Origin: a virus
Taxonomy: Duplodnaviria > Heunggongvirae > Uroviricota > Caudoviricetes
Length of the DNA stretch: 64,000 nucleotides
Reading direction: 5' to 3' (one strand)
Virus record (IMG/VR): IMGVR_UViG_3300015214_000024
Location: 361,787 to 425,786 of that record
Part shown: positions 14,537-36,186 of the stretch, one piece after another
How positions within the stretch are numbered: the stretch's first letter is position 1
Layout: each line of letters starts with the position of its first letter
Translations under genes and position numbers: made by a program
Notes under the pieces: generated by a model
Told to the model about the DNA's origin: nothing
The model's database searches: none
What the model saw: the letters and a program-made list of their open reading frames with translations, nothing else

Positions 14537-15136
14537 TTAGGCTCCAGAGAGGACGCCGCCAATACTTGTTAGAATTGGATTTGCAGTCATCAATTCTGTT
14601 GATGTTGCGTTATCGTAACGGATAGTTAAATCGATTGTTTGAACGCCGTTATTTTCAGCATAGTCTAAACCTTCGTTTTCATAGCTTTGGATCCAGCATC
14701 CTTCAAGAATCCACTGTTCCAAAACATTCACGTTACCGCCGTCCATAACTTCAACATACATATCAAACTTATAATTGACACCAGCAGCCGGACTTGTTTG
14801 TTCATAGTGGTTGTGTTGCTTTTGAAGCTGATATCCTACTAACTTTGAAACAGAGTTAGTGATATCGTCACGAAGCTTAACTGCAACAGTCTGCCAAGAA
14901 TGCTTACCAGCAACGTAAACTTTTGAAGTGTAAACGTCGAGAGTAACTTCTTCGTGCTGAAGCTTAGGCTTATCAGCAGTCATAACCTGTTGGGTGAAAT
15001 AAGATTGATCGCCAATCGGTCCGAAATTAATTGTGCGAATACGGAAGCGATATTTTAGCTTTGGCTGAAGGACACCCTTACGACCTTCTTGACCATCTGG
15101 TCCCATTGGAACGCCAAACTTTGTAAGTGTGGACAT
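14537..15136 (-). CDS. gp19: Tail tube protein (gp19-like)
   Basis: QPKLKYRFR, AGKHSW, LRDD, W.LEGCW, LTIRYDNA; AAAGGAG RBS, late motif at 15177, own terminator. Confidence 0.85.
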   Translation of the reverse strand: MSTLTKFGVPMGPDGQEGRKGVLQPKLKYRFRIRTINFGPIGDQSYFTQQVMTADKPKLQHEEVTLDVYTSKVYVAGKHSWQTVAVKLRDDITNSVSKLVGYQLQKQHNHYEQTSPAAGVNYKFDMYVEVMDGGNVNVLEQWILEGCWIQSYENEGLDYAENNGVQTIDLTIRYDNATSTELMTANPILTSIGGVLSGA

Positions 15137-15226: not shown

Positions 15227-15892
15227 TTATGGTTGAGTTTCTTCCTCTTCAGGCGGAGGTGGCGGATCTTCAACAGTGATGTAAATACATTTGGTTTCAG
15301 CAGTTTGACCACGCAACGTAATAATTGTATAACTAAAAGCATCAGCGCCAGTGTAGCCCGGATTGGGTACGTAAATTATACTCTTGCGATCGTCAGACAT
15401 CCTAGCAAAACCATTATATGGTTGAGTGCATATTACCGGTTCACACCAAGTAGCCGCATACGTTTCCTCATCTGTCGGTGCCAAGGTTTCGCCACCAAAT
15501 ATATTATCGATGGTGATAATATACTCATCAGGAACAAACGGCTGTATAGTTTGATCACATATCACTTTGATTTCGGCAGCAACTGGTTGATTGAAAGTGA
15601 TTAGCTGATCTTCAATCTCATAAGTTAACTGTGGCGGGTTCAAGTGTGTCTCGCCAAAGTCTGTACTTCTGTTAATTATCCTTATACCATCTTTATAAAT
15701 CTCTACCATTTCAGCACTTGGTATTTTCCAAGGCACTTGTAATTGAGATGTCAATGCCATTTGATAGGTAAAAGATAGTTCACCGCGACTTAAAATCTGT
15801 TTAAATGTATCACTAGTTTGATTGACCGGTACTGTAATTTCCATATCATCAATAGGTGGAATTATTGTACGGCAATTATTAATATTAATCAT
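15227..15892 (-). CDS. Structural protein with C-terminal Ig-like (Big_9-type) domain
   Basis: YVPNPGYTGADAFSYTI motif; start set at ATG 15892 (TAATG overlap). Confidence 0.7.
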   Translation of the reverse strand: MININNCRTIIPPIDDMEITVPVNQTSDTFKQILSRGELSFTYQMALTSQLQVPWKIPSAEMVEIYKDGIRIINRSTDFGETHLNPPQLTYEIEDQLITFNQPVAAEIKVICDQTIQPFVPDEYIITIDNIFGGETLAPTDEETYAATWCEPVICTQPYNGFARMSDDRKSIIYVPNPGYTGADAFSYTIITLRGQTAETKCIYITVEDPPPPPEEEETQP

Positions 15893-17973
15893 TAGCCTCC
15901 TCCCAAATACCAAGCAATAGCTTTCAGCACTGGTTTAATTGGTACGTCGCCACACCAGACACTATTAGTATATAGTACGTTATAACTATAAGTTCCTTCA
16001 GGTTGTTGGTAAATTATAGTAATATCAGATGGATAAGCACTAGCTGCATCTTCTGCCAATTCGATGGTCGGATATCCGCCCTGACGAACATAATTTGTTG
16101 AATCGTAAATTACATTATTTTCAAATATAGCATTCAAATTAATAGTTTTTAAACTATCAATTGCATATTCATATGAATACAAAATATTAACCATTTGTGG
16201 TGCTGAATAACTTTGCATTATAGGTTGCGAATCATAAGCGATATTATTAGCTAGACCATAGAAACCAAAAGCAGTATTGACTACAAGATAGTTGCTTTGG
16301 ATCCACGGGGCATATGAAGAAAATAATTCAAATTCGTGATTATGCACTAATACTTCATACATCCATTCAGAACCATATGAATGAAAGTTTTTATTTGTGA
16401 AATCAGCCCAATATGTATCATTGTATAGGTAACGATTATAATTATCCATTACCCAATTGGTCATTATTTCTCGGTTTTCCCAATTAATCCAATATTGAGG
16501 GATCAAGCTAATAAATTTATCAGCTTCAACTTGATTATTTTGGAAATAAACATCAATCAGACGAGTATCTTCATATTGTGAAATTGAATAATAGGTACTA
16601 ACTACACGCCAATTCAATGGCGTGGCAATTTTACCTTCAATAGCATCAATTGGTTGAGATTCCACATAATTGTAACCGTGCTTACCAACTAATGAATCAA
16701 ACACATATCCATAAATGTAAGCTTCTATCTTCTGTTGGGCTGAGTTAGCATTTACTAAGCTATTATGTATATTGTTAAAGAATAGCGCCTTCAAACTTTC
16801 CACAGTCTCATAATAAGTCAATTTACTAATAAACAACGAAGTAGGAGCAGTCCCATATTTGAGTTCATTAGTTTGGTCTTTAAATATGCCAATTGGTGCA
16901 AATGCATATTTAATTTGAGCTGTTTGATCTCGGAAATCACTATCAGGTGCTTTAGAATTTTTCAAACTGGAAGACTGATCCGCAAAATCACCATTCGGAG
17001 CATCAGAATTATATATAGTTTCATTTGTGAACAGTCCAACTGGACTACCAGTATTGCCTACTTTAGATTGATCAACAAATACTGATTCGATATCGTTATC
17101 GCCGTCAGCAACCGCCTTATATTCAATCCATTGCCCTTCTTGGGTATTTCTGTAAATATACTCATCATATTTGATTGCATCTGACGGTCCCACCAATTGC
17201 CAGGTGCCGACTTCAGTTTCGCCAGTAAAAGTTGAATCTGTATAAATTAAATATGTATCGGAAAAAATATTATCAAGATATTTCTTTAAATATACTTGAT
17301 CGTCGTTTTGAACATTGATCGTCGACGAGAATGAATTACCATCAGATGAGAATTGCAATCCATCATATGAGTATAATGTAATTATTGTACTTTCTGACAA
17401 ACCAGAGATAGTAACTGGATATGAATATAGGTCTTGATTAGGCACTCCGTCATATGCATCACCAAAATCTAAATAATCAGGCAAATCGTCAAGTAATTTG
17501 ACGTCAACTAACATCTCCATACCGAGCCAATTTAAACTGATTTTCGGATCAGACGGGACAAGGAATTCAAGCCCCATCCAGCTAAAATTGGATTGAACTG
17601 CTGGCGCGATCGACATCAATAATTCGGTACCCATCCAAGATACATTAGCTATTGGATCACCGGTTACTGCGACATCAATATTTTGATTTGTCACATAAGC
17701 AATTGGTGTTGGCGCTTTTAGTACGACTTCTGTATTAACATTTGAAATTCTGGACGTTGAAGTGGTTGGTGATATTATTACTTCAGCAATTTCACTATGA
17801 ACTCGTCGATCTGTTGGCGGATTAAGTTTCGTGATAACTTGAACCGCGGCGAAACCGACCGTCGTGCCAGGGACAGGCTTCAACAAAACTTCAGCACCAA
17901 CAAAGCCAACTTTTGGTCTTTGTGGTTCTGTTATTGCTACTTCAATTGACGTAAAGCCGACATTAGAGGTCAT
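15892..17973 (-). CDS. Repeat-containing structural/scaffold protein
   Basis: 693 aa; nine N-terminal 10-aa repeats and a central ~17-aa repeat tract; TAATG overlaps on both sides. Confidence 0.7.
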   Translation of the reverse strand: MTSNVGFTSIEVAITEPQRPKVGFVGAEVLLKPVPGTTVGFAAVQVITKLNPPTDRRVHSEIAEVIISPTTSTSRISNVNTEVVLKAPTPIAYVTNQNIDVAVTGDPIANVSWMGTELLMSIAPAVQSNFSWMGLEFLVPSDPKISLNWLGMEMLVDVKLLDDLPDYLDFGDAYDGVPNQDLYSYPVTISGLSESTIITLYSYDGLQFSSDGNSFSSTINVQNDDQVYLKKYLDNIFSDTYLIYTDSTFTGETEVGTWQLVGPSDAIKYDEYIYRNTQEGQWIEYKAVADGDNDIESVFVDQSKVGNTGSPVGLFTNETIYNSDAPNGDFADQSSSLKNSKAPDSDFRDQTAQIKYAFAPIGIFKDQTNELKYGTAPTSLFISKLTYYETVESLKALFFNNIHNSLVNANSAQQKIEAYIYGYVFDSLVGKHGYNYVESQPIDAIEGKIATPLNWRVVSTYYSISQYEDTRLIDVYFQNNQVEADKFISLIPQYWINWENREIMTNWVMDNYNRYLYNDTYWADFTNKNFHSYGSEWMYEVLVHNHEFELFSSYAPWIQSNYLVVNTAFGFYGLANNIAYDSQPIMQSYSAPQMVNILYSYEYAIDSLKTINLNAIFENNVIYDSTNYVRQGGYPTIELAEDAASAYPSDITIIYQQPEGTYSYNVLYTNSVWCGDVPIKPVLKAIAWYLGGG
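17506..17961 (-). repeat. Nine protein-level 10-aa repeats with Pro-containing linkers
   Basis: VGFTSIEVAI, VGFVGAEVLL, VGFAAVQVIT, VHSEIAEVII, ISNVNTEVVL, VTNQNIDVAV, VSWMGTELLM, FSWMGLEFLV, LNWLGMEMLV. Confidence 0.75.
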
Positions 17974-19061
17974 TAGCTACTCCTCTTAATGCCAAGTTGC
18001 ATATTTTGAACATCAGCTAAATTCCAAGCAGTGCTAGTTGATGGATTTGTTGTCATTATGGATGATGGTCTAGTTACTGATGATACTCTGCTGGCTGATA
18101 GAGAAGCTGTTGCCACCACTGTTTCAGTAGTATTGTTTTTCATTTTTAGTTCAACGCTGGTTGTTCCCAATGGAGATCCGGCGGCTTGCATATAAGGCAA
18201 AACCCCTAATACTTGAGTGTTGCCATCAATTCTATTAATTTGTGTTATATCGTAGTAATCAGCATCATTTACATTATTAGCCGTCACGTAAGTTTGACTA
18301 GTTCCAATAATTTGATCATTCACTACTGCAAAATTGTCAGCGCCATCAGACGGCAACCAATTCTTTTGAGCCGTATCAGACACGGGAACGACTGGCACCA
18401 TATAAGTTAAGCCCAAACGCTCGCCGGTGGTTACATAAAAATTGTCATAATTTTGAATCGCACCAGATCCAGAAACCCAGCTAGTGTTGCCGCGGCCAAT
18501 AGATAAGCTATCAATATTTTGGTATGAAACTGTTGAACTCAATGCCTGAACGTTTGATCTATTCAAAACTAATTGCCCATTTAAGTATAAATTAAATGTC
18601 ATCGTTTGTCCATTAGTAGTTACCTGAAATTCAATATAATTCCACGTACCCGTAGTCAAAGTAGCTGTTCCTGAATATGCTACTTGTCCTTTAACAAATA
18701 AAACGTTACTTGAAGTATATAGTTGTATCACATCATTACTGGCAGATGATGCAGACGAATTAAAAAATGTTATAAGATTTGCTGACCCAGCATTGGTCAT
18801 AACGTGGAAACCTGCACAAATACTTGTAGTAGGTGCAAAATTAATCATAAGACGATTATTCGAACTGGTACTATTAGAAAAACTTAAAAACTGGCCAGGA
18901 GGTGTGCCAGGCATCATTATACCTGGTGATCCTAAACTAAGAAAGCTAAAAGTCGATCCGCCGCCGCCAATATAACGGTCATCCAAGCACATAGATGTCT
19001 TTAGTGCATCAGAAGCTGAATCAGCGTATGCTTCAAATCCATCAGTAAAAATAATTGCCAT
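17973..19061 (-). CDS. ConA/LamG-like virion protein, paralog 6 (short form)
   Basis: MAIIFTDGFEAY start, WNYIE, DNFYV...LG, SDTAQK, NP.T..AW...MQLG. Confidence 0.75.
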   Translation of the reverse strand: MAIIFTDGFEAYADSASDALKTSMCLDDRYIGGGGSTFSFLSLGSPGIMMPGTPPGQFLSFSNSTSSNNRLMINFAPTTSICAGFHVMTNAGSANLITFFNSSASSASNDVIQLYTSSNVLFVKGQVAYSGTATLTTGTWNYIEFQVTTNGQTMTFNLYLNGQLVLNRSNVQALSSTVSYQNIDSLSIGRGNTSWVSGSGAIQNYDNFYVTTGERLGLTYMVPVVPVSDTAQKNWLPSDGADNFAVVNDQIIGTSQTYVTANNVNDADYYDITQINRIDGNTQVLGVLPYMQAAGSPLGTTSVELKMKNNTTETVVATASLSASRVSSVTRPSSIMTTNPSTSTAWNLADVQNMQLGIKRSS

Positions 19062-19179
19062 TAGTTTTTCCTTAACGTTCTGAATATTTATTTTAATTGC
19101 AAGGACAAAGAAAATAGCAATTTTCCTAAGCTATCAAATATATACCCACATTAATTGAATTTATCACTTTAAACTATGA

Positions 19180-20958
19180 TTAGGAATATGGCGCGGAAGG
19201 TACTGTGAAACTTGAACCAGTGTATCGAGCAACACTCTTAGTAACTCGAATTTCATCTATAGCGCCATACCAGCCAGTTGTACCTCTACCTGATGCATAA
19301 ATCCACATTGGCTGGGTTGTTTGGTAGAGGGCGCCTGGTAATGTAGCACTATTAACTAATGATCCATTCAGATAAGATCGAACCACATTACTATCGTCTC
19401 TCGTAAGTGCGACGTGTGCCCAAGTACCAGTTAAGCTTGATTTATCAATACCGGTATAAAGTGAACTGAGGCTTGATCCGAATCCCAAATTAAAAATAAG
19501 TACGCCTACTGAATTAACTTGGATTTCGTAACCAAAATTAGAAGTATTGTCAGATCTATTACTGATAATATATCCGTTATTACTTATAGACACTGCATTA
19601 ATCCAAAATTCAAACGTAAACGCACCAGGAAAAGCCCATACTGATTGATTTAGCGGTGTTATCGTATAATAATAAATTCCTGACGTTTTATTTAGATAAT
19701 ACGAATATGATGAATTAACGGGTGACGAATTTTGAACCGTAATGGCGGCGTTAGAACGCGCGACAGAGCCAGTATTGCCACTAATGTCAATATTGGTTGA
19801 TAACACATTATTATTATCCCAATTTGCCATCAAAATAACATTTGACCAGTTAGGGTCATCAGTTCTAGCCAGCCCTAATTGGGTCGATGCTATGTCTGAA
19901 TACGTCCAAGGTGATAAGGTATTGGGATTTGAAGTGATTACTGATCGTCGATAAAGAACAGTATTTGATCCAAAAGGTGCCATTGATAGTGTTGACCCAG
20001 ATTCTGTCGAGCCAACTTTAATATTAGACTGTATTTTTTCAGTATTACCAGCCGTAGATCTTGCAAACATATATGGCTGGATTCCTGAGATCGTACATCC
20101 TTGATCTTTTAAACTTAAACCAGCAACATTATAATAATCCTTAACTCCAGCGTTCGGGGCAGAAACTAAAGTTGTCATACCAGGATTAGTTGTTTCATTG
20201 ACCATTGCATAATTATCAGCGCCTGCAGAAGGTGTCCATTCTTTCTGCACATCCGACGATGGCAATAAAGGACGAATTTCTGTAGGACCAAGGCGCTCGC
20301 CAGTTGTCATATAAATGTGGTCAAACTGTTGCTGTCGATTGTTATATCGAGCATACGTTGATTTGCCATAGAATATCTGTTCAATACCAAAAACACCATT
20401 TCCACTACCATACCAGCTTAGAGTTGGCAAGTCGATAACTAATACATTATCCTGATAAACTTGAACAGCAGCAGATGAACCACTTATATTGATCATAACT
20501 TCAACGTGGATCCAAGTATTAATTGGAAATGTAACTGCGGAAGGGTTGCCAACCATTGATGCGCTAAGTGTATCAGACGTTGATATGATTGATAAATTGG
20601 AAGATCCATTAACAATTAATTCAATGTATGATTGAGTTGATCCAGTATTTTGAAATCTTATCACACTAGCAGTAGTATTACTGCATTGATAATACATACC
20701 AAAACAAAGTTGAGTCATAGGTGATGTATGGTATGTTGCTATATCATATGTCATAGCATTAAGTGAGGTATTAGTCGTTGACGAGCGCAAGCATCCGCCA
20801 CGATTCTCAAAGCCTGGTTGAATTGTCAAATAACTCGATGTTACTTGGGACGCTGTAGAAAACAGACTGTATCTTTTACCTAAGTGTAGACCAGTAGCAT
20901 TGTCAGTAGGTGCAGTGCCATAATAATAATCAAAACCTTCTGTATAAATTAATGCCAT
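19180..20958 (-). CDS. ConA/LamG-like virion protein, paralog 5 (extra C-terminal LamG domain)
   Basis: MALIYTEGFDYY core plus FTFEFW, WAHVALTR, YLNG, GAIDEIRVTK. Confidence 0.8.
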   Translation of the reverse strand: MALIYTEGFDYYYGTAPTDNATGLHLGKRYSLFSTASQVTSSYLTIQPGFENRGGCLRSSTTNTSLNAMTYDIATYHTSPMTQLCFGMYYQCSNTTASVIRFQNTGSTQSYIELIVNGSSNLSIISTSDTLSASMVGNPSAVTFPINTWIHVEVMINISGSSAAVQVYQDNVLVIDLPTLSWYGSGNGVFGIEQIFYGKSTYARYNNRQQQFDHIYMTTGERLGPTEIRPLLPSSDVQKEWTPSAGADNYAMVNETTNPGMTTLVSAPNAGVKDYYNVAGLSLKDQGCTISGIQPYMFARSTAGNTEKIQSNIKVGSTESGSTLSMAPFGSNTVLYRRSVITSNPNTLSPWTYSDIASTQLGLARTDDPNWSNVILMANWDNNNVLSTNIDISGNTGSVARSNAAITVQNSSPVNSSYSYYLNKTSGIYYYTITPLNQSVWAFPGAFTFEFWINAVSISNNGYIISNRSDNTSNFGYEIQVNSVGVLIFNLGFGSSLSSLYTGIDKSSLTGTWAHVALTRDDSNVVRSYLNGSLVNSATLPGALYQTTQPMWIYASGRGTTGWYGAIDEIRVTKSVARYTGSSFTVPSAPYS

Positions 20959-20970
20959 ATCTACAGCCCT

Positions 20971-22653
20971 TTAAATTGCCCAAAACAATTGGTTTGCCAT
21001 TGTAAATTTTCTAATGCCACCATAAAATTGCCTGGCTGGGTCTTTAGAATTATCACCCCCGATGGCGAAGCCGTTGGTGGAATCACGAATTTGTCCACCG
21101 TTTAATGCAATATCCAAAACTTGACTATCGTTTAAATATCCACGCAATCGACCAGAATAGAACATAAAACCAACCCGGTACCAAGTATTTGTTTGGATGT
21201 TCGCAATAGCTAACAAAGTGCCGCCGACTTGATTTCCTCCAAGGTTATCAGAGGCTGAATAAACTCCCAAACCAGCAAAAGATCCTTGACTACTATTTCC
21301 TAAGAATATTGACCATTCAGGCCACTGCGGCGCACCAGAATTTCCGCCAACTGTCGCAATTAGCTGATTATTGGCTACAGTAGTGGTATAAAATTCAAAT
21401 TGAACTGAATATGGCATCGTTACGTGCCAAAACGGAACATCAGTATATCTGATGTTTTGTGATCCATTAAATATTAATGCATTACCAGATACTGTCGGGG
21501 CCGTATCGCCCGCGATAATCGTTGATCCACTCACAATGGATGGATAGTTTCCATTATCATCAATATAAAAACCGCTATTAGTCAATAGGAAATTTTCGTG
21601 TCTCCTAATACCAAGCTCACTTGAATTAAAACCACTAGCAGTCCACGGTGAAGATGTGGCTGGATCATTTCTAAGGTGTTCAGTAGTCGCTATTAGGGGG
21701 ATACTCACTCCAGGCAGCATTGGTATTGATGAAGTCGTTTCTGTTGAGGATGATTTCAACTGAATTGAAGTTCTAGCAGTTGAACTAGCATCACTAGATG
21801 TTGAATAGGACAATCCTTGAACTGAAATTATACTGTCATTAGCATTCACTAATGATAAATCACTGATGGTATAATAATCAGTATCTAAGTCATTTTTTAA
21901 TAAAACATTTGTATCCATTGATGGTGCGGAAATATCATTTACCATATTATAATTGGTTGTTCCGTTGAGAGGCACACCATCTTTTTGTGAGGTATCACTA
22001 TCAGGGACCAATGTACTAATATTAATTGGTCCCAAAACTTCACCATCACTTAAATAAAAATTATCCATACGATAGCTACCACTATAGCCCAATTGGTATT
22101 TGCCAATAATGAAAGAAGACCAATAGTATGGAGTAGCTGTAAAACCAGTTCCTGAAAAGGTATATGCTAGTGTACCATTCAAATATACACTGACTAGAAT
22201 TTGAGATCCACTGGTTATTTCAGCGTGTAGTTCAAGATACCACCAATTTCCAGTAGTAATTGAAAATGAGCTTTGCTGGGCAGCACTACCGTAAGTTGCC
22301 GAAATCCTCGTATTCAGCCTTCCTGACGAATTGACCGACAATAATATATATGCGCCATTTGGTGCTCGAATATTAAAGACATCTATGTCAGTACCAAATG
22401 ATGGAAAATAGACGTGAGCGCCCATTGTCACTGATGTTAAAGTATTACCAATAGGTACTGGAATACTATTAACAGATGATGACGATACGGAATATACTAG
22501 TGATTTACCACCAGCATATCCAGTTGTATAACTAAAGTAGTTCGCCCAATTTACTGTAACCCCAGGATAGCGAGTTGAAATGTTAATTAACTCATTATTA
22601 TTGCCTGAAGTTTCATTATAGTAATCAAACCCATCTGAAAAAAGTATAGTCAT
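20971..22653 (-). CDS. ConA/LamG-like virion protein, paralog 4 (extra C-terminal domain)
   Basis: MTILFSDGFDYY core; C-terminal IQTNTWYRVGFM ... GGIR. Confidence 0.78.
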   Translation of the reverse strand: MTILFSDGFDYYNETSGNNNELINISTRYPGVTVNWANYFSYTTGYAGGKSLVYSVSSSSVNSIPVPIGNTLTSVTMGAHVYFPSFGTDIDVFNIRAPNGAYILLSVNSSGRLNTRISATYGSAAQQSSFSITTGNWWYLELHAEITSGSQILVSVYLNGTLAYTFSGTGFTATPYYWSSFIIGKYQLGYSGSYRMDNFYLSDGEVLGPINISTLVPDSDTSQKDGVPLNGTTNYNMVNDISAPSMDTNVLLKNDLDTDYYTISDLSLVNANDSIISVQGLSYSTSSDASSTARTSIQLKSSSTETTSSIPMLPGVSIPLIATTEHLRNDPATSSPWTASGFNSSELGIRRHENFLLTNSGFYIDDNGNYPSIVSGSTIIAGDTAPTVSGNALIFNGSQNIRYTDVPFWHVTMPYSVQFEFYTTTVANNQLIATVGGNSGAPQWPEWSIFLGNSSQGSFAGLGVYSASDNLGGNQVGGTLLAIANIQTNTWYRVGFMFYSGRLRGYLNDSQVLDIALNGGQIRDSTNGFAIGGDNSKDPARQFYGGIRKFTMANQLFWAI

Positions 22654-22690
22654 ATTAGATCCGTTTTTATTTTATTTAATGCCAAAATTA

Positions 22691-24376
22691 TCAAATTGGC
22701 CAAAAAAGTGATTTTGCAACACTTAAATTTCTTATACCGCCTTGAAGGAATACTGTTGGATAGCCAGCATTATCTCCGACTATTGCTAACCCATTTGGTG
22801 AATTCCAAGGTTGGACCAAGCTATCATCAAATCGTTGTGCCCCATTGAAATAACCACGCACCCTAAGTGATCCGTTGTTATATACCATAAAGCCAATCCT
22901 ATACCAAGTATTCAACTGAACTGTACCGGCTGGCACTAATGTTCGAGTTACTTGGGCGGCGGCGCTGTTAGCTGATGCCGTAGCAAGTATGATCTGTCCG
23001 TTATTATACACTTGAACTACAAATTCAGGAAAACCGATACTAAATCCTTGACCGATATTAAACAACATTGGACTATTAGCTAATGAAGAGACGTAAAATT
23101 CCATCTCCATAGAATAAGGAGCAGTGACGTGAAAATCGCTCGAATCTGTATATCGTATCTGCTCAGTACCAGTAAAAATTAAAGTATCGCCCGATACTGC
23201 CGGTGCAGCTATGCCGCTTGTAATCCGAGTAGAAGTTGAGCTATTTGTAATTGATCCATTTGTGATTGAAAATTTTACATTTTCAAGCAAATTCATAACT
23301 ACGCCGGACTGAATTCCATTAATATCTGAAGATGACCACGCACTGCTCGTAAAAGGATTGGCTTCGTAAATATTGCTTGGAAAGAATGATGAATTTGCCT
23401 GGCCTTCGTATGGTGTGAAAGATGGTTGATTTACTGTATTGGCGCCAACTTTTAATGTTTGGAATATGTTTGTTTGCCCGAAAGAGCTTTTATATCCAAC
23501 TGTATTTGACTTAACTGCCTTAATTGGCCCAAGCACAGACGTGCCGCTTGACGGCAAGTCAGAAACATTAAACATATCAGTATTATTTGATGATGTGCCA
23601 ATATTCGCCGTCTGAGTGGTTGAATATGCATTGCTATTAATTTGTGTATAATGAGCTGTTCCACTTGATGGAGTCCAGCCTAACGGTGTAGCATCAGAAG
23701 TTGGTCTAAGGGTTACGATATTCATTTCGTCACTTCGGGTTAAAGTGTTGTTTACGTAAAAATCATCAATCAAAACAGTGCGCAATGTGGTATCCCAGGA
23801 ACCGTTTGTTATTATCGCTGAATTATAAAATGTATTTGAAGAATATGTAGTATCAGCATTAGATACTGATGCAACCATTACACCATCAATATAAAATCTC
23901 GCGATGCCGTTCGTTGTTCCTGCCCTTGCCTCAAGCTCATAATAATGCCAAGCTGTTGGGTCATAATTTGCTATCGGCTTACCAGTAAAAAGCGTAGTAC
24001 CACTTCCATTTTTAACTACTGGATAGTAAAATAATCCATATGAATTATAATAAACATAAACCGACAAGGCTACATTTGAGTTAAAGGCTAAACTAATTAA
24101 TGAATTAACATTTGACGTGGTTAATGACGGATTCGTATGTCTAATGGCTACCCCAACGGAAGTGGTAGCTATATTATTTGGGTAGGTATATTTAAAAGTA
24201 GTATTTTGAATAACAGATGATGATGTTATATACCCAGAAGAAGTTATGCATTGGCCACCATATCGGCCAGTTGTAAATCCATAAGAATTAGTACCATTAC
24301 CACCCAATGTCCAATTTTGCGTGAACAGCGAGTTGGTAGCATAAGAGTTGAATCCATCAAAATAAATTAAAGCCAT
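22691..24376 (-). CDS. ConA/LamG-like virion protein, paralog 3 (extra C-terminal domain)
   Basis: Start moved to MALIYFDGFNSY at 24376 (GAGG RBS); C-terminal domain homologous to paralog 4. Confidence 0.78.
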   Translation of the reverse strand: MALIYFDGFNSYATNSLFTQNWTLGGNGTNSYGFTTGRYGGQCITSSGYITSSSVIQNTTFKYTYPNNIATTSVGVAIRHTNPSLTTSNVNSLISLAFNSNVALSVYVYYNSYGLFYYPVVKNGSGTTLFTGKPIANYDPTAWHYYELEARAGTTNGIARFYIDGVMVASVSNADTTYSSNTFYNSAIITNGSWDTTLRTVLIDDFYVNNTLTRSDEMNIVTLRPTSDATPLGWTPSSGTAHYTQINSNAYSTTQTANIGTSSNNTDMFNVSDLPSSGTSVLGPIKAVKSNTVGYKSSFGQTNIFQTLKVGANTVNQPSFTPYEGQANSSFFPSNIYEANPFTSSAWSSSDINGIQSGVVMNLLENVKFSITNGSITNSSTSTRITSGIAAPAVSGDTLIFTGTEQIRYTDSSDFHVTAPYSMEMEFYVSSLANSPMLFNIGQGFSIGFPEFVVQVYNNGQIILATASANSAAAQVTRTLVPAGTVQLNTWYRIGFMVYNNGSLRVRGYFNGAQRFDDSLVQPWNSPNGLAIVGDNAGYPTVFLQGGIRNLSVAKSLFWPI

Positions 24377-24386
24377 ATCATCCTCA

Positions 24387-25436
24387 TCAGCTTGACCTAA
24401 TACCAATTTGCATATTATTCACACCACTTGTAGTCCAAGCTGTCGAAGTTGCCGGGTCTGTTTCTGATATAATGCTTGGTAGCACTATTAATGTATTTTC
24501 ATACAATGACTGACTTGTTCCGTTCACTTCAGTGGTATTCGATTTTAAAGTCAAATTCGCCCCAGCTGGACCAAAAGTTGACTTGCTTCCTGCGCCATAA
24601 ATCCCAACAGCTAAAATATTGCCAGTGATAGCAGTCACTGAAGAAATATCTTGAATATCATAATAATCTTTATCACCAGTATTAGCTGTTTGAACATACG
24701 TATTGTCTGCCGAGCTCATCAAGTCATTAACAACCGCATAATTGTCTGATCCGGATGATGCCGTCCACTGTTTTTGAGCGGTATCAGCATTTGGTTTTAA
24801 TCCGGCAATGTGTAATTCCCCCAACCTAGCTGCCGTGTTGGTAATATAAAAATCATCATAATATAAATCGGGATTAAAACCAGATCCAAATGGGGGACTT
24901 AGACGAACAGAATCAATAGCAATAATGTTAGTGGTCGATTTCACTGGAACACTGCTTGTAGAATACAAAACCTGACCATTAAAATAAAAATTAATACTAC
25001 CAGAAGTTAAGCTTGTTACGACTTCCAATTCAAAATAATTCCAAGCAGTTAAATCAAAGATTTTAGGCATTGTAACTGTAGCTACTGCACCATTGTTACT
25101 GACAACTATTTGACTTTCACTCATACCAACATAAGCAATAACTGTTGAGCCATTCATTAAGGTTATGACTGGATTCACTGTTCCAGATGTTGAGTTAGTT
25201 AGTCTTATAGCTGCACCAACAGAAATGTTATTCAATGTTGATGTTAGTGTTCTAATTAATCCAGTTGACCCTGGTTGAGTGATATAGCCACTACCAAGTG
25301 ACAAACAGCGGCCGTCATAGCGACCAGATGCTAAAACTGAAACTCCTCCAGTAGCAGTAGCCTGTGAGTAATATTGTGGCAATATAGTATTGTCAAAATA
25401 TCTTTCAAAACCGTCAAACCAAACAATCGCCATCAT
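24387..25436 (-). CDS. ConA/LamG-like virion protein, paralog 2 (short form)
   Basis: MAIVWFDGFERY; WNYFELE; DDFYI; PNADTAQK; DPATSTAW. Confidence 0.75.
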   Translation of the reverse strand: MMAIVWFDGFERYFDNTILPQYYSQATATGGVSVLASGRYDGRCLSLGSGYITQPGSTGLIRTLTSTLNNISVGAAIRLTNSTSGTVNPVITLMNGSTVIAYVGMSESQIVVSNNGAVATVTMPKIFDLTAWNYFELEVVTSLTSGSINFYFNGQVLYSTSSVPVKSTTNIIAIDSVRLSPPFGSGFNPDLYYDDFYITNTAARLGELHIAGLKPNADTAQKQWTASSGSDNYAVVNDLMSSADNTYVQTANTGDKDYYDIQDISSVTAITGNILAVGIYGAGSKSTFGPAGANLTLKSNTTEVNGTSQSLYENTLIVLPSIISETDPATSTAWTTSGVNNMQIGIRSS

Positions 25437-25445
25437 TTTTCTCCC

Positions 25446-26486
25446 TTAGAGTATTTCTGGGCCCATTTTTAAATTATTAATGTCTGTTGATTTCCAAGCC
25501 AGGCCAGTATCTGGATTTACCGTTAAGATAGGATCAGAATAACGATAAAAATCTGTCTGTGACATTAATAAGTTGTTAGTAGTTCCATTAACTGTCGTGC
25601 TACCGACAGTTAAATTTACTCTAACATCAATTGTGGCAGCGTCGTCCTTTCTGGCAGTATATACTGGTTGAATACCGTGTATTTTCAGAGGATTAAACGA
25701 CATATCATCAATATCATATATATCCTTCCATCCCTGCGTACCGCCATAAATGAAGGACGAATTGTCCACAGTCAGACCATTTACCGCATCATAATTGCCA
25801 GCCAACCCAGTCGGATTGGTTTGGAAATTCTTCTGAGCAGTATCTGCATTTGGAGACAATACTATTACTCTACTTTCACCCAACTTGGTTGCCGTATTAT
25901 TAATATATACATCATCAATATACCAAGTAGCTAATGAATTGGTATAGAACTTAATAAAATCACCACCTGTCAACGTGGTAGTATCTAGTGAATTAGAAAC
26001 CGCTTGCGTGTCATTCACATATACAGATAATCTACCACTTGCAGAATTTAGCACGGCCTCGAATTCAATATAAACCCAGGTATTGAGCGGTATGACACCA
26101 TTTGATGATGTTGCGACAACTGTTGACGGTCCTGATTTGATCTGCAATGCTCCATCAGTAGTTACATCTAACCTAAATTGAACCAAGCCGCCCGTTGAGT
26201 TAAAAATTTCAAGAATTGTATTTTGTTGTGTATAAGCTACTATTTTAGCAGCAAATCCGACACTCAAAGAAGTGAGTGTCGAGCCAATCTGTGTTTGTGC
26301 AAATGAACTGGACGCTGAAATATTGCTATTCATATACATTGCTTGGCTATTTGGATACCGGCCAACACCGGTTGTTATCAAGGTAGATCCGGCATTAGAT
26401 ATCGTCCATCGACTTGTTAATGGAAGTGCTGATCCAGAGCCAGAGGCTGTATAATAATCAAACCCCTCAATAAAAACAGCAGTCAT
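25446..26486 (-). CDS. ConA/LamG-like virion protein, paralog 1 (short form)
   Basis: MTAVFIEGFDYY; WVYIEFE; IDDVYI; PNADTAQK; NPDTGLAW. Confidence 0.75.
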   Translation of the reverse strand: MTAVFIEGFDYYTASGSGSALPLTSRWTISNAGSTLITTGVGRYPNSQAMYMNSNISASSSFAQTQIGSTLTSLSVGFAAKIVAYTQQNTILEIFNSTGGLVQFRLDVTTDGALQIKSGPSTVVATSSNGVIPLNTWVYIEFEAVLNSASGRLSVYVNDTQAVSNSLDTTTLTGGDFIKFYTNSLATWYIDDVYINNTATKLGESRVIVLSPNADTAQKNFQTNPTGLAGNYDAVNGLTVDNSSFIYGGTQGWKDIYDIDDMSFNPLKIHGIQPVYTARKDDAATIDVRVNLTVGSTTVNGTTNNLLMSQTDFYRYSDPILTVNPDTGLAWKSTDINNLKMGPEIL

Positions 26487-26563: not shown

Positions 26564-27856
26564 TTATGGGGTAATACCACCACCCAAATTCAATACAACA
26601 ATTCTAACTCCAGTATTATTTGAACCGCTTGATTTCAAAGCTAAATATTCTCTATTTTGCGATTCACCATAAACCGTCAATGGAACGATAGTTCCGTTTG
26701 AAACAACGTCAGCTGAAGTAAAACCGATCATATCAAGCTCATATGAATAGCAGAATCGACTTGTATTCAGACGAGCTGGGAACGTGACAATATATTTTTG
26801 ATCTTCCGACAAAGAAACTTGGTTCTGTGCGTTGATAATCGAGTCGGAATCTTCCTGATTAATCTCGGCTCTGCGTCGGGCATAGTTTGGTCTTAGCAAC
26901 CCAGTAACTGGGTCAGTTCCTTGCTCCACATTAGCAGTAGTATCTTCTGGATCATTAATATCGTCAGTGATATTATATAATGAATGGGCAATTCCTGCCG
27001 GCTTCAAAACATCAGCTTCACGAACAACCGTTTGGAAAAAATATGTTTGTTGTGGGAAATCCTGATTTGCACCATTGTATGCTACACACCAAACTGGTGC
27101 TTTACCATCAACAACTGTAGCACCAGTTTCACGATCTACCGGACGTTGAATTAGTACCCAATTAAAGTTGTAAGAAAATACGTCACTATCAGCATCTTCC
27201 CAAATACCGAACCATACACCGCGATCAGTAATTACCAATCTATATCGCAATGGAAAAGCTGTTCCAGAACCTGCGCCAATTCGAGTGGTTCGGTTAATAA
27301 TACCAAATTTAGGGTCATCTTTAACTACTCGCTGTTCGTAAGTTGAGCTTGCAGTCATAATCGCCTCAGTAAATGGAGTCCAAACACCACTAGCGGTAAT
27401 GTACTGCTGAACATTGTCTGTATTTGTTCCTGAACTAGGGGCAGTAACTGGATTATATACATTGGTACCCATCTTAAAATTAACATTACCAATAACATCG
27501 GTTGGCATCATCTTTTGCTGTTCTTGGGAGGAAGATGAAGCTTTTTTAACTAAGCCGACTTCATAAAGAAGTGGTAATGACCCATCATCAGCCAATGTTG
27601 CAGATGTACCAACGTAGCAAAAAGCATTTTGTATTTTCTGAACGTCAAACATAACTCTCCAAGGCTGTGTGGCTGCCAGTGGATCAACGTCAGATGATGC
27701 TTCTAACAAAACTTTATATGGAGCCGTAGCGGTTCCAGAATCAAACGTTAACGGATAAACTAAATCGAATCCATTCGCAACCATATCATCAACAAGTGAT
27801 GCAATTAATGCAGTTGCTGATGGAAATCCGCCACGTTCTACAATAAATCCAGCCAT
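26564..27856 (-). CDS. Virion structural protein, paralog A
   Basis: Shares VDPLAATQPWR, QRPVDR.TG, GKAPVWCV, FP.RLN.SR, ELDMI with 27892..28950; TAGGAG RBS. Confidence 0.7.
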   Translation of the reverse strand: MAGFIVERGGFPSATALIASLVDDMVANGFDLVYPLTFDSGTATAPYKVLLEASSDVDPLAATQPWRVMFDVQKIQNAFCYVGTSATLADDGSLPLLYEVGLVKKASSSSQEQQKMMPTDVIGNVNFKMGTNVYNPVTAPSSGTNTDNVQQYITASGVWTPFTEAIMTASSTYEQRVVKDDPKFGIINRTTRIGAGSGTAFPLRYRLVITDRGVWFGIWEDADSDVFSYNFNWVLIQRPVDRETGATVVDGKAPVWCVAYNGANQDFPQQTYFFQTVVREADVLKPAGIAHSLYNITDDINDPEDTTANVEQGTDPVTGLLRPNYARRRAEINQEDSDSIINAQNQVSLSEDQKYIVTFPARLNTSRFCYSYELDMIGFTSADVVSNGTIVPLTVYGESQNREYLALKSSGSNNTGVRIVVLNLGGGITP

Positions 27857-27891: not shown

Positions 27892-28950
27892 TTATATTGC
27901 ATCAATACCGCCACCTTCGTGCAATACCAATACGCGCATACCAGTATTTCCAGTATAGTTTGCCTGAAGTGCTTTATATTTTCTTGGTGTTGGATTTGGT
28001 GTCGGGGTGGCACCATCATTTTCACCATAAACTTCAATGTCAATTATTGATTCTTGTGACACCACGTCTGCTGATGTTGTAGCAATCATATCAAGCTCGT
28101 GTGAGTAACGATAGCGTGACGAATTAAGTCTTGAAGGGAAATTAATTACATATTTGCCATCTTCAGTTAATCTAACTTGTTGATATGGATTGATAATCGC
28201 TTCTGAATCATCTTGATTTTGTGTTGCAGATCGGCGAGTCAATGTTGTATCAACCATCTTTGGTGCTTCTGGACGAAGAATATCTGATTCCCTAACCACA
28301 AATTGATAAATGTTATTTGTGATACCAGTAGTATCAGCAGTGCTATTCACACACCAAACTGGTGCTTTACCTGTTATAACTACTTCACCAGTATCTCTAT
28401 CAACTGGTCTTTGAACTAATATCCAATTAAAGTGTGCTGAAGTTTCCGCAGTAACAGCGTCTTCCCAAGTTCCGAGGAAAAATCCACGTGGCGAAATAGA
28501 CAATCTATAAGACATTGGGTAGGAATTGCCATCATCACCAACACGAGTACTGCGGTTAATGAAACCTTGCGAAAGTGATGAAGAAACAATATTTCCACCA
28601 GTAGCAATAGCGCCAACTGCACCAATAATATCAACTGGAGCGTTTGATGCATTCACTTCCTTAGCAAATGAACCATCATCTGGCAACTGGGTCGGAGTGG
28701 CGACAATAACACTAATTAAATCTTTTTCTAAAGCCTCAAAACGAATTCTCCAAGGCTGTGTAGCTGCTAGTGGATCAACATCAACACTAGCTTCTAATGT
28801 AACACTAAAAGCTTCGCCAGCAGTTTGAGGGTCAAACGCTGATACTGGATATTTCTGTGTAAATCCATTATCAATCATTTGGCCGACGGCATCAGCAATC
28901 AATTCCGCGGCTGTCAAAAAATTGTTTTTTTCAAATATATAGCCAGTCAT
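27892..28950 (-). CDS. Virion structural protein, paralog B
   Basis: Same motifs as paralog A; late motif at 28990-28997; GGAG RBS. Confidence 0.7.
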   Translation of the reverse strand: MTGYIFEKNNFLTAAELIADAVGQMIDNGFTQKYPVSAFDPQTAGEAFSVTLEASVDVDPLAATQPWRIRFEALEKDLISVIVATPTQLPDDGSFAKEVNASNAPVDIIGAVGAIATGGNIVSSSLSQGFINRSTRVGDDGNSYPMSYRLSISPRGFFLGTWEDAVTAETSAHFNWILVQRPVDRDTGEVVITGKAPVWCVNSTADTTGITNNIYQFVVRESDILRPEAPKMVDTTLTRRSATQNQDDSEAIINPYQQVRLTEDGKYVINFPSRLNSSRYRYSHELDMIATTSADVVSQESIIDIEVYGENDGATPTPNPTPRKYKALQANYTGNTGMRVLVLHEGGGIDAI

Positions 28951-29676: not shown

Positions 29677-30741
29677 TTATGCCCAATGTACCTGTATGTT
29701 TGCGCCAGTTTGAATATTGTTAATTCTAATCAAGTTATACTGTGAAGCATAACCAGAAGCATTTGTAAAATTAATCACGGTGGTGGTAAAGTCACTGAAT
29801 GCAAGGCCGCCAACAGTAACAGCATTCAATGTGCCGAAAGAAGCCGGATAGGCATAATAAACATATCTACCACCAGTAGCATTATAAGTAACATCTTTGA
29901 CTTTTGATGTTGAAAATTCAGAACTTAAAGCGATGATTTCCGAATCAGTCAAAGTAGTATTCGGAGAGACACCCCAATATCTTTTATTTCTAAATTGCAA
30001 AGATGCCGTTGATGTTGCTGTATTTCCAGCATTTGCTGTACCATCAGAAACTGTTAATGTCCAAGAACGGTCCGAGCTAAATGGACCGTTGACTGTCGCA
30101 GTAGTATCAGACGGGGTGAGCGGGGTTCCGGTATAGTTTGTCATAGCCAATGTTGCGGCTGTCTTGTTCAACGACCAATTCAATGTGACAGACCCAACAC
30201 TTGAACCAATTTCCACCAAATTTGGCGAGGCTGAGAATGAAGTGATCGCCATCGGCTTGTAAAGCAATGCTGCCATTTGAGCCTCCAAAATATCTAAACG
30301 TGCTTTATAATTTGCCAGGCCAGCAGGAGTAACTGCTACGTCATCTCTGACAGCAGCATCACATTCTTCCAAGGTGGCCTTAGGCACATCAATAGTCTTG
30401 TCAGCAGGTCCGTTATCAGTGACATATGCAAGACCAGTGCCAGTAATGGTAATAGATGGTGTGATCGCTGATGATAAATCATTAATGGAGGTCAAATATG
30501 TTTGACCTTGATCAGCCAACATTAACGTGGTATTACCATTTAAATTAGCTGTCGGGAATGTTGTTAAATTAAAAACATACTTACCCAATACATAATCACC
30601 AACAGATTCCGAAGTTATACTAACAGGTAGTTTTTCAGTAGCATTGTTAGCAGCTGGTAATAATTCATCACCAAGCAGTTCGTCCAAACGAGGCATTTGG
30701 ACAATGTTAGTCAATTCTAATGTTTGATCAGGTAATGCCAT
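29677..30741 (-). CDS. Putative fibre/virion protein with Ig-like C-terminal region
   Basis: AVTPAGL fibre motif, ITSFSASP, YYAYPASFG...FTNASGY; TAATG coupling. Confidence 0.6.
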   Translation of the reverse strand: MALPDQTLELTNIVQMPRLDELLGDELLPAANNATEKLPVSITSESVGDYVLGKYVFNLTTFPTANLNGNTTLMLADQGQTYLTSINDLSSAITPSITITGTGLAYVTDNGPADKTIDVPKATLEECDAAVRDDVAVTPAGLANYKARLDILEAQMAALLYKPMAITSFSASPNLVEIGSSVGSVTLNWSLNKTAATLAMTNYTGTPLTPSDTTATVNGPFSSDRSWTLTVSDGTANAGNTATSTASLQFRNKRYWGVSPNTTLTDSEIIALSSEFSTSKVKDVTYNATGGRYVYYAYPASFGTLNAVTVGGLAFSDFTTTVINFTNASGYASQYNLIRINNIQTGANIQVHWA

Positions 30742-33700
30742 TAAATTTTAATCCCGTTTCCGTCAATAAGAACAATGAACTGTTTGATTCGTAACAAATT
30801 AGCACCAACAGATAATGTGAAGCCACGGTCTTTGTAGTTTCCCCATTTATCATATGCTCTAACTGTAAAGAATGTTGTTGATCCTTCCGGTCCAGCAACA
30901 CCAGTAATAATTCCTGTACTACTATTTAGCGTAAAGCCTGGTGGCAAACTACCAAAAACTAATTCATATGAAACAATTTGATCAACTAAATGATGCTTTG
31001 TTCTCAATTGGATTGTTACTGGTTTTTCTGTAGTAATATATCCCAATTCTCCAGGAGGAGTAATCCAAATTGGAGGATTAGCTGACCAGAATTCTTTAGT
31101 AAGCCCATTATAGAAAACTTCCTGATAATCTGGAGCCCATTTGAGTTGAAAAACTTGACCATTAGTTAATTTGCCAATATAGCGATCAAATAATAATTCT
31201 TTACCAACAAAAGTTAAACCGTCAGCTTGAATATTTTGTTTCTCATCTAAAATTAGGCTATAATCAAAGTGAACCAATTGTCCGTCAAAAGTAGTTTCTA
31301 TATTCGATTGTGGCAAAAATCCAAGTTCTTCACAAGGGGCGCCAGTAATGTTCGATAAAGTGATGAAATTGCTTGCATAATTAAAACGCAAGGCATAGCC
31401 ATAAGTTGGCGTGAATTCTGTACCAATATAGCTATATTGAACTGACTGTTCTAAATACACTCGTATTTCATTATTACCAGCAGCAGATAATGCCTGTTCA
31501 ATATCGTTTTTAGCAGTGAAAACGTCACTACCAGTAAATGTTACTAAAACACCGCCAACAGACATTTGCGATCCGACAGTAACTATTGGATCTACTTTAT
31601 CAGCCAATAGCACGTGGCGATCAAAAGTAGTTTCCTGAATATTGAAACTAGTTTGGTTGATGATTTGAGTAAAGTTTTGTACAATAGTTTGTGCTTTTCC
31701 TGGCTGGACATATGCAAGAACTATTGCTGGAACATAACCTAAAGTTTTTCCTGTGTCATCCTGTGGCAATCTCATCCAAGCTGGTAGGAATTCATCATTT
31801 TCAAGCTGCTTGACCTCTTGGCGGATATTATCAAATGAATGACTGTAATATTGAATACCATCCTGTGTTGGAATATTATAATCGGTACCATCCTGTGGAT
31901 CAAGCAATGGAATATAAATTACTTCATACTCTACGTTGCCATAATTGTCTCTACCAACAGCATATGTTGGTATTCCCATCAAACTGCTAAATTTCTTATG
32001 ATGGTTGGATAATATATTTTGTATTTGATTTTTATCATCAGTATGAATATTATTTGTGACCAATACATCATATTGTGATGCCCTGCCAAATGTTGGACTA
32101 TCTGCCTTATATAAGACGCTGTCAGGAATTAAATCATCAGTATTCCAAGCTTCTAACATATGAACAAGTTCTACACTTAGCGGAACATAAAGGTCACAAG
32201 CAACACCAGTATATGCCGGCGTAGGAACAAATTTAATTACGAAATTTCTTGGTACAACATCAGATCCATCCATAGCTTCAACAATAAAACCAAGTTCTTG
32301 TGTTGAATAAACTTCACCAACATATCCTGTTAATAAACCATCACTTGATACACTTAAACCATATGGCAATGAACTATTGTATGATAAGCGATATGTTAAT
32401 GGCAATGGCCCGTCATCAGGATCAATCGCCTGGAACTGGAAATTAACATATTGGCCCGGATGATACTCGATTGGATTTGAACCATCAGTCAATTGCCCAG
32501 ATGGCGTAATCCAAATTGGTGCTAAATTAGTAGTATTGACGACCTTAACAGTAAATTGTTGATCAGAAAAAGCTAGATTAAAATCAGTTGCTCGAATAGT
32601 AAATTGATAGACGGTTTCACTATCAGTACCATTACTCGGTACGCCAGATAGTTGCCCAGTTGCTCCATTAAACAACATTCCCGTTGGTAAGAATCCGCTA
32701 ACAAAAGAATAAGTAACCACGGATCCTTCAGGATCATTAGCAACAAAGTATAAAGTAGTTGGCTCACCAGAAACAATATTACCAAGGTTTGAACTAGTTA
32801 TCCATACTGGAGGTTGATTTACTGTCGCACTGCTCACAAATATATTAAAAGATCTTTCAACTGTAAAAACACCATCAGTAACACTTGCAGTAAAATCATA
32901 CCCAGTGTCTTGTGATATTAAGCCAATAGTGCCAGTTATCGAACCATTAATTTGATCCAACACCAAGCCGGGTGGTAATGAACCAGATACTATTTGATAA
33001 GACAGTGAATCTCCTTCTGGATCGTGCGCAATTAATGATGTGGAATAAATTTGGCCATTGATACCAGACGGTAACGGTCCTTCCTGAGTCAACCATATTG
33101 GTGGTGAATTTGGATTCAAAGCACCGTCAGATATTGTTAATGTAAATTCTTGTTCAGACTCTAATCCAGCACCAGGATTTGACAATATATCAGATACTGT
33201 AATGTGGAACGTTACTAAAGTGTCCTCGTCAACCGATCCAAGTGTACCACGCAAATAACTGTCTTGAATATACAAACCAGATGGCAAATCTACTGACGAG
33301 TATGTTAAAAGATCACCATCTTCATCATCAGCATTTAGTAAAATATTAACATACGATCCTTCAGGAAAGATTCCAAGATCTGCGTCATTCAGCCAAACAG
33401 GTGCAACATTAATTTTATTGGTCAAAATTGAAAAAGTAGAAGGAACAAGCTTATATCCATTACTTGCATATACGGTAAAGACATAAAGTTTATCAATATT
33501 ATCTAAAATCGTACCAGTAATAGTACCATCAGTATTCAATGTTAATCCATTTGGGAACTCGCCAGAAGCAAAAAAGTAATTTAGAGTAAGATTTATCGTA
33601 TCGTGTGCCAGCAAAGTTAATGCTACATCATCATTTTGATAATAAGAGCCCAAATTCCCAGTTGGCGTATCCCATATAATATCTGATGTCAAGTGCTGTT

Positions 33701-36125: not shown

Positions 36126-36186
36126 AGAAACCCACAATAACCAAATCTAGTTCTGGTTATTTATTGGTTTTCAGCAGGGTTAATTA

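Follow-up and report, generated by a model that had tools for sequence, protein, structure and literature searches.

Six lectin-like paralogs and a tandem-repeat protein as a candidate rope-and-bead appendage in the tail module of a jumbo phage

A 64,000-nucleotide (nt) stretch of viral DNA (positions 361,787 to 425,786 of IMG/VR record IMGVR_UViG_3300015214_000024; here, the window) carries a row of six genes for ConA-like, lectin-like paralogs that ends in the gene for P0001, a 693-amino-acid protein with short tandem repeats at its N terminus. The record represents a 455-kb virus and was judged complete. The features of these seven genes, together with the recurrence of the gene pairing in other phages, suggest that they may encode a tail appendage in which the paralogs are strung like beads on P0001. 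The genes and the parts of P0001 are as follows, in window coordinates.

25446..26486, minus strand: paralog 1 (P0007), 346 amino acids; matches the hidden Markov model (HMM) of alignment A3
24387..25436, minus strand: paralog 2 (P0006), 349 amino acids; modelled, with a predicted local distance difference test score (pLDDT) of 85
22691..24376, minus strand: paralog 3 (P0005); its C-terminal domain aligns with that of P0004
20971..22653, minus strand: paralog 4 (P0004), 560 amino acids; extra C-terminal Laminin_G_3 domain (Pfam)
19180..20958, minus strand: paralog 5 (P0003), 592 amino acids; extra C-terminal Laminin_G_3 domain (Pfam)
17973..19061, minus strand: paralog 6 (P0002), 362 amino acids; ConA-like jelly roll plus the conserved second domain, stop codon overlapping the P0001 start
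15892..17973, minus strand: P0001, 693 amino acids by translation, candidate rope or scaffold
17500..17973, minus strand: nine-repeat region of P0001 (residues 1-158), three classes of three
Residues about 180-262 of P0001: beta-rich domain
16798-17001, minus strand: second repeat class in P0001 (residues 325-392), four copies with a period of 17, AP-x-[SGD]-x-F-x-[DN]Q-xx-E[IL]K
15892-17494, minus strand: conserved C-terminal module of P0001 (residues 160-693), ending NYVRQGGY..YQQPEGTYSYNVLYTN.VWCGDVP...AWYLGGG, the terminal GGG invariant

The paralogs together span 17973-26486, and the genome holds exactly six copies, all within the array. Five of them match phrog_2448 (E 1e-18 to 8e-32); P0005 gave no match in the PHROG scan, yet it aligns over its full length. 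The HMM built from alignment A3 matches all six at E below 1e-94, having itself been built including them. The start of paralog 3 is likely the ATG at 24376, which begins the conserved MALIYFDGF, and not the TTG at 24406. The listed TTG lies ten codons upstream and would overlap the end of paralog 2 (24377-24406, minus strand). An extra C-terminal LamG-type domain is present in three of the six paralogs, recognized as Laminin_G_3 by Pfam in two and by alignment only in the third.

In the AlphaFold model of P0006 (pLDDT 85; predicted template modelling score 0.86), residues 1-210 fold as a ConA-like jelly roll, and a second beta domain comes after it. Residues 3-210 align to the glucuronan lyase 2zzj (Z 19.0; root mean square deviation 2.6; 192 residues aligned), and the fold also matches alginate lyases, GH16 enzymes, lectins, and the carbohydrate-binding module of the phage J-1 Dit protein. 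The fold-search matches were all taken up by ConA-like proteins aligned to domain 1. Full-length structural matches in BFVD (template modelling scores of 0.8-0.85) were all uncharacterized phage proteins. Longer fused forms of P0006 were sought and none were found. No relative of solved structure emerged when the PDB was searched with Pam4_35, with Pam4_36, or with the paralog profile.

The second domain, a beta domain of about 140 amino acids and thus of bead-like size, had been described in an initial annotation of the window as conserved among the paralogs, and the alignment bears this out. Mean pairwise identity among the six is 30% in domain 2 and 23% in the domain 1 jelly roll, and it reaches 49% over the first 14 residues. 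A conserved second domain and N-terminal strand beside a variable jelly roll is what one would expect of a varying head on a mounting part that is retained.

P0001 begins with nine units that fit the pattern hydrophobic-x5-[EDQ]-hydrophobic x3, starting at residues 5, 22, 39, 58, 76, 94, 111, 130, and 147. They are spaced 17-19 amino acids apart and are joined by linkers that contain proline. Shuffled versions of P0001 averaged 0.42 such units per 160 amino acids, with no shuffle exceeding 3. The nine units fall into three consecutive classes of three each (VGF; [VI]xN/S-type; [SN]W[ML]G). Translation and the shuffle comparison thus agree with the initial annotation, which had reported nine N-terminal repeats sorting into three triplets. 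The region has no match in Pfam, PHROG, or the PDB, and in HMMER searches with the units P0001 itself was the sole match. There is no tandem repeat at the DNA level in the P0001 gene, and the units are therefore old. The second repeat class was absent from the initial annotation; relatives of P0001 carry three to five copies of it, and these repeats may be further docking sites.

The overlap of the P0001 gene with the last of the six paralog genes was also as annotated initially. The TAA of the paralog gene overlaps the ATG of the P0001 gene (GCTAATG), and a Shine-Dalgarno sequence, AAGAGGAG, sits 8 nt 5' of that ATG, within the upstream gene.

Full-length relatives of P0001 fall into two groups, four proteins with 54-60% identity and three with 35-40%. 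The more distant relatives keep all nine repeats, with the same class at every position. One of the closer relatives, P0012, has lost exactly one unit and has eight repeats. Position-specific conservation of this kind speaks against the units being mere linker. The last two repeats plus the entire C-terminal part of P0001 also form the end of two proteins of about 2,350 amino acids (P0034 and P0035). Residues 160-693 thus constitute a separable module, one found also at the end of long fiber-like proteins. The P0001 alignment matched nothing in scans of IMG/VR and of JGI metagenomes.

The paralog family was followed into annotated phages with the HMM of A3 (E 1e-14 to 1e-81). In at least 12 other phage lineages, genes of the family adjoin a gene for a protein of tandem short repeats, and the repeat units have a hydrophobic core. 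The paralogs and their repeat partners are listed below.

Chi (locus L017, 5983-12379): four paralogs, gp32-35, with CHI_36, 709 amino acids
JC01 (locus L007, 7040-14385): five paralogs, with a 702-amino-acid repeat protein, phrog_7226
AchV4: three paralogs, with 0028, 578 amino acids
Brevundimonas phage Delta: two paralogs, with Delta_33
Brevundimonas phage Strzyga: two paralogs, with Strz_70
Mesorhizobium phage Cp1R7A-A1: two paralogs, with a 103-amino-acid protein of five repeats, its start overlapping
phiRSL1: two paralogs, with an 85-amino-acid protein of 4 repeats
RsoM2USA: two paralogs, with a 70-amino-acid protein of 3 repeats encoded between both paralogs
Motura: at least one paralog, with a 196-amino-acid protein
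Ccr10 (phiCbK-like): one paralog, with a 69-amino-acid protein of 3 repeats encoded directly upstream
595-kb uncultured megaphage (locus L009, LR756511.1): two paralogs nearby, with an 80-amino-acid protein of 4 near-perfect repeats, divergently placed
TvV S20: one paralog, with S20_31, 4 repeats
Pam4: one paralog, with repeats at the N terminus of a 1,290-amino-acid protein

An unbiased internal-repeat scan of every open reading frame (ORF) in ten loci placed the repeat partners among the top scorers. Start and stop codons overlap, or are separated by a gap of 0-2 nt, between the paired genes here and in several other phages. The small repeat proteins of the megaphage and of Ccr10 have phrog_13560 in common (megaphage match, E 1e-11), which was the only match of any repeat region in Pfam, PHROG, and PDB searches. 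In TvV S20, four repeats are flanked by a LamG domain on one side and a baseplate-hub domain on the other (PF09931, PF09356), and in Strzyga the repeats precede a DUF2460 distal-tail domain. The repeats in these two phages therefore belong to tail-tip structural proteins. In the Streptomyces phage Keanu, a single chain combines the paralog module with a long array of repeats. Functional coupling of the paralogs with the repeat protein is well supported by these genome comparisons.

Some details of these loci stand apart from the pairing itself. In Chi and JC01, phages of a model flagellotropic group, a protein of about 700 amino acids with more than 20 short repeats follows the paralogs, and all of these genes are annotated as hypothetical. 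The megaphage ORF (14712-14954, minus strand), upstream of the two paralog genes and divergent from them, has four near-identical 17-amino-acid units, VR[IL]TQ[EQ]PVEVLGI, in a record that is unannotated. The Keanu protein (locus L020, 3695-7015; 1,106 amino acids) has an N-terminal paralog module, a LamG-like region, and about 20 basic repeats of approximately 27 amino acids. Its gene stands between those for the capsid and the head-tail adaptor, and the protein may represent the module in the form of a head or neck fiber. An exception is the Sphingomonas phage Lucius, in which the paralog carries a fused F5/8-type C domain and no more than one unit.

Fibers built as beads on a rope have been solved in a few phages. 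In the podophage A1002 the nozzle-rope protein gp39 has 11 docking sites, with gp40 dimers at sites 1-7 and gp41 dimers at sites 8-11, and each bead dimer forms an augmented beta-sheet with the rope (PMC13730344). Chain-like fibers are described for VP1 and for GP4 as well (Fiber-1 gp80 in GP4; PDB 8JOU) (PMC13730344, citing Zheng et al. 2023, J Mol Biol 435:168258). In GP4 a separately encoded rope carries five dimers (PMC13730344). The collar protein of the myophage Bas63 has a rope domain at its N terminus; this domain passes through grooves in the whisker dimers, whose incomplete sandwiches it completes (PMC12609058). Strand complementation on a scaffold whose repeats could select paralogs, as the initial annotation proposed, is a mechanism of this kind.

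The seven-gene module resembles A1002 and GP4 in that the putative beads are encoded beside the putative rope, along which nine regular strand-plus-linker units would offer a row of docking sites. It further resembles A1002 in having diverged paralogs as putative beads, which in A1002 occupy defined consecutive positions; A1002 has two bead types and the window six paralogs. The rope is free in GP4 and fused to a tail protein in A1002, matching the free and hub-fused forms of the repeats in the surveyed phages. The gene arrangement of rope-and-bead fibers is found as well, with adjacent genes and the TAATG overlap here and with free or hub- or DUF2460-fused repeats in other phages. The type of virus differs, a 455-kb contractile-tailed phage here compared with the podophages A1002 and GP4, and PDB searches found no sequence similarity of the window proteins to the solved ropes or beads. 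The collar and whiskers of Bas63 and Sf14 provide a rope domain in a myophage, wrapped by whisker dimers "like beads on a string"; unlike the proposed appendage, they are located at the neck and have two dimers per rope, one bead type, and no lectin-like head (PMC12609058).

Other multivalent systems are less similar. The Klebsiella jumbo phage phiKp24 has different receptor-binding proteins (RBPs) that are tandem-encoded and carried on a common anchor (PMC9700779). Docking in branched systems relies not on tandem peptide repeats but on the folded N-terminal adaptors of trimeric tailspikes (T4 gp10-like and XD domains). Systems of this type, with different tandem-encoded RBPs on one particle, include CBA120 TSP1-4 and G7C gp63.1/gp66. 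The initial annotation had likened the arrangement to a cellulosome scaffoldin. This likeness is only a loose analogy, and rope-and-bead fibers are the closer precedent: Pfam detects neither cohesin nor dockerin modules among the seven proteins, and the repeats are 10-amino-acid strands, not domains.

The closest counterparts of the whole module are CHI_32-36 and AchV4_0025-0028. They include true homologs of the paralogs (HMM E 1e-14 to 1e-35) in the same gene order, with a repeat protein of 578-709 amino acids encoded last, and they are annotated only as hypothetical or as "virion structural protein". The Chi and AchV4 modules belong to siphophages and lie downstream of lambda-J-like and DUF2793 proteins, whereas the genome of the window lacks DUF2793; phrog_13560 is absent from it as well.

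Our preferred reading, to which we assign a probability of roughly 0.55, is that the seven genes encode a rope-and-bead tail appendage with strand docking of the paralogs on P0001. The six paralogs would be virion proteins, the bead subunits. The variable N-terminal jelly roll would probably be a glycan-binding head, with a second, LamG head in three paralogs, and the conserved second beta domain together with the N-terminal strand would probably be the mounting part. P0001 would be the rope, with nine short hydrophobic strands separated by proline-rich linkers. Each strand would augment a paralog subunit or a subunit pair, and a single polypeptide would in this way carry several different heads. 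Residues 160-693 would anchor the chain or form its tip. Physical docking, its stoichiometry, class preference, and glycan binding are what we infer.

This reading is favored because the pairing recurs across lineages and the repeats are fused to tail-tip proteins, because paired genes overlap or nearly abut here and elsewhere, because the nine repeats keep their class order in relatives at 35-40% identity, and because beta-strand augmentation has precedent in A1002, Bas63, and GP4. It is also favored because members of the paralog family are virion proteins in AchV4: liquid chromatography-tandem mass spectrometry (LC-MS/MS) of purified particles identified AchV4_0025 and 0026 (PMC7996906). 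The idea put forward in the initial annotation, that a scaffold of strand repeats partners the adjacent lectin-like paralogs, is thus strengthened by the recurrent pairing and tail-tip fusions and by the solved fibers, both of which bear on it indirectly.

Several findings weigh against docking, and some of them point to other explanations. The known beads of chain-like fibers are single-domain proteins of 140-171 amino acids that form dimers and are not ConA-like, whereas the window paralogs have 346-592 amino acids and a ConA-like head with or without LamG. A domain-2 profile found no solved bead protein in the PDB at E up to 10. The Pseudomonas phage Lu11 has a member of the paralog family without an obvious repeat partner. 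Furthermore, a position matrix derived from three small repeat proteins and the C terminus of Delta_33 did not score the repeats of P0001, Chi, JC01, Motura, or RSL1 above shuffles. The possibility that all of the repeats are one homologous motif was dropped, as the matrix from these four proteins recognized none of the others; across lineages the repeats are, by this comparison, alike in design but not demonstrably homologous. The lack of a common motif would be consistent with the paralog array and P0001 being functionally independent and with the repeats being a flexible low-complexity linker that has no binding role. We consider such independence very improbable. The class of each repeat is kept at its position in the 35-40% identity relatives, the pairing and the fusions recur, and the start/stop overlap provides translational coupling.

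The numbers of repeats and paralogs do not correspond either. The initial annotation had proposed comparing them in related phages; the ratio is 9:6 here and elsewhere roughly 3:1, 4:2, 5:2, and >20:3-5, so that it is not fixed and one repeat per paralog type misfits. For example, Chi and JC01 have ropes of equal length and four and five paralogs, respectively. Structure prediction of P0001 gave no confident fold: AlphaFold2 with a five-sequence alignment returned an unusable model (pLDDT 26.6), and the ESM Atlas model (pLDDT 0.39) had uninformative neighbors. A self-contained fold of the repeats, which the initial annotation had named as evidence against docking, was not seen in these models; with such low pLDDT and five aligned sequences this is uninformative and does not support docking.

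Both the variable ratio and the low monomer pLDDT, which is typical of obligate trimers, would also fit P0001 as a homotrimeric fiber whose repeats fold together as a beta-spiral or beta-helix shaft. The paralogs would then be separate receptor-binding proteins elsewhere on the baseplate, and gene adjacency would reflect only a shared tail-fiber module. The 17-19-amino-acid period, with two short hydrophobic segments and proline/glycine turns, resembles fibrous shaft repeats such as those of the adenovirus and reovirus triple beta-spirals, and the C-terminal module of P0001 also ends fiber-like proteins of 2,300 amino acids. A shaft of this kind is possible, but we think it unlikely. Partners of 57-103 amino acids consist of 3-5 repeats and nothing else, and a bare shaft without head or anchor makes little sense. 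The recurrence of the pairing in at least 12 lineages, among them cases of fusion to a hub protein, also speaks against a homotrimeric shaft.

The AchV4 proteomics raises a further point, in that the repeat protein 0028 and the paralog 0027 were not listed (PMC7996906). Detection of 0025 and 0026 without 0028 would be explained if the repeat proteins were assembly factors, chaperones or rulers, that bind the paralogs transiently and are absent or rare in the finished virion. A location 3' of the fiber genes with an overlapping start fits the usual place of a tail-fiber assembly gene, as exemplified by lambda Tfa and P2 G, which are downstream of the fiber genes, and many of the partners are very small. 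An assembly role is nevertheless distinctly unlikely in our judgment. In TvV S20 and Strzyga the repeats form part of structural tail-tip proteins by fusion, and P0001, CHI_36, and AchV4_0028 are proteins of 580-710 amino acids with extra conserved domains. Paralog 0027 was likewise unlisted, and therefore the proteomics was not exhaustive. Moreover, the solved ropes are virion parts (PMC13730344, PMC12609058).

The array lies in a long late operon on the minus strand that runs from a subtilase gene through two tail-sheath paralogs, the six lectin-like paralogs, P0001, and an immunoglobulin (Ig)-like ORF to two tail-tube-type genes.

30741-36137, minus strand: 1,798-amino-acid subtilase of this operon (S8 domain, E 4e-24), with seven He_PIG Ig repeats
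26564-27856 and 27892-28950, minus strand: tail-sheath paralogs, phrog_12249 (E 5e-77 and 4e-86), directly upstream of the lectin array
15227..15913, minus strand: 228-amino-acid ORF with an Ig-like (Big_9) domain, overlapping the 3' end of the P0001 gene
14537-15136 and 12953-14410: tail-tube-type genes, downstream of the array

Because sheath and tube-type genes share the late operon, the locus is, judged from its gene content, the tail module of a contractile-tailed jumbo phage. The putative appendage genes are placed between the sheath and tube genes, each of which is duplicated. The 228-amino-acid Big_9 ORF may be a further component of the appendage. In INPHARED, no phage record matched the region at the DNA level, and a tblastn search with P0001 gave no match.

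A broader proposal is that the phrog_2448 proteins and their repeat partners constitute a widespread, undescribed class of beaded fibers with large lectin-type heads on a peptide rope, that in this jumbo phage the three repeat classes set a fixed order of the six heads along one chain to give a programmable multi-glycan adhesin, and that gp32-gp36 are an unrecognized appendage of Chi. This proposal is tentative, and we consider it more doubtful than docking in the window itself. In the literature, no paper was found that describes the paralog family as part of a rope-and-bead fiber.

If the docking is real, the rope-and-bead principle, whose solved examples are so far limited to small single-domain beads from few phages, would extend to a large, widespread family of lectin-like virion proteins, to jumbo phages with contractile tails, and to arrays in which six heads differ from one another. 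Hypothetical tail genes of Chi (gp32-36), phiCbK, phiRSL1, and AchV4 would also gain a function. Multivalent host-recognition devices would then be readable from sequence, by counting lectin-type paralogs and the adjacent repeats. The conserved class order of the nine repeats bears directly on the question of whether the sequence of a rope dictates the order of its beads.

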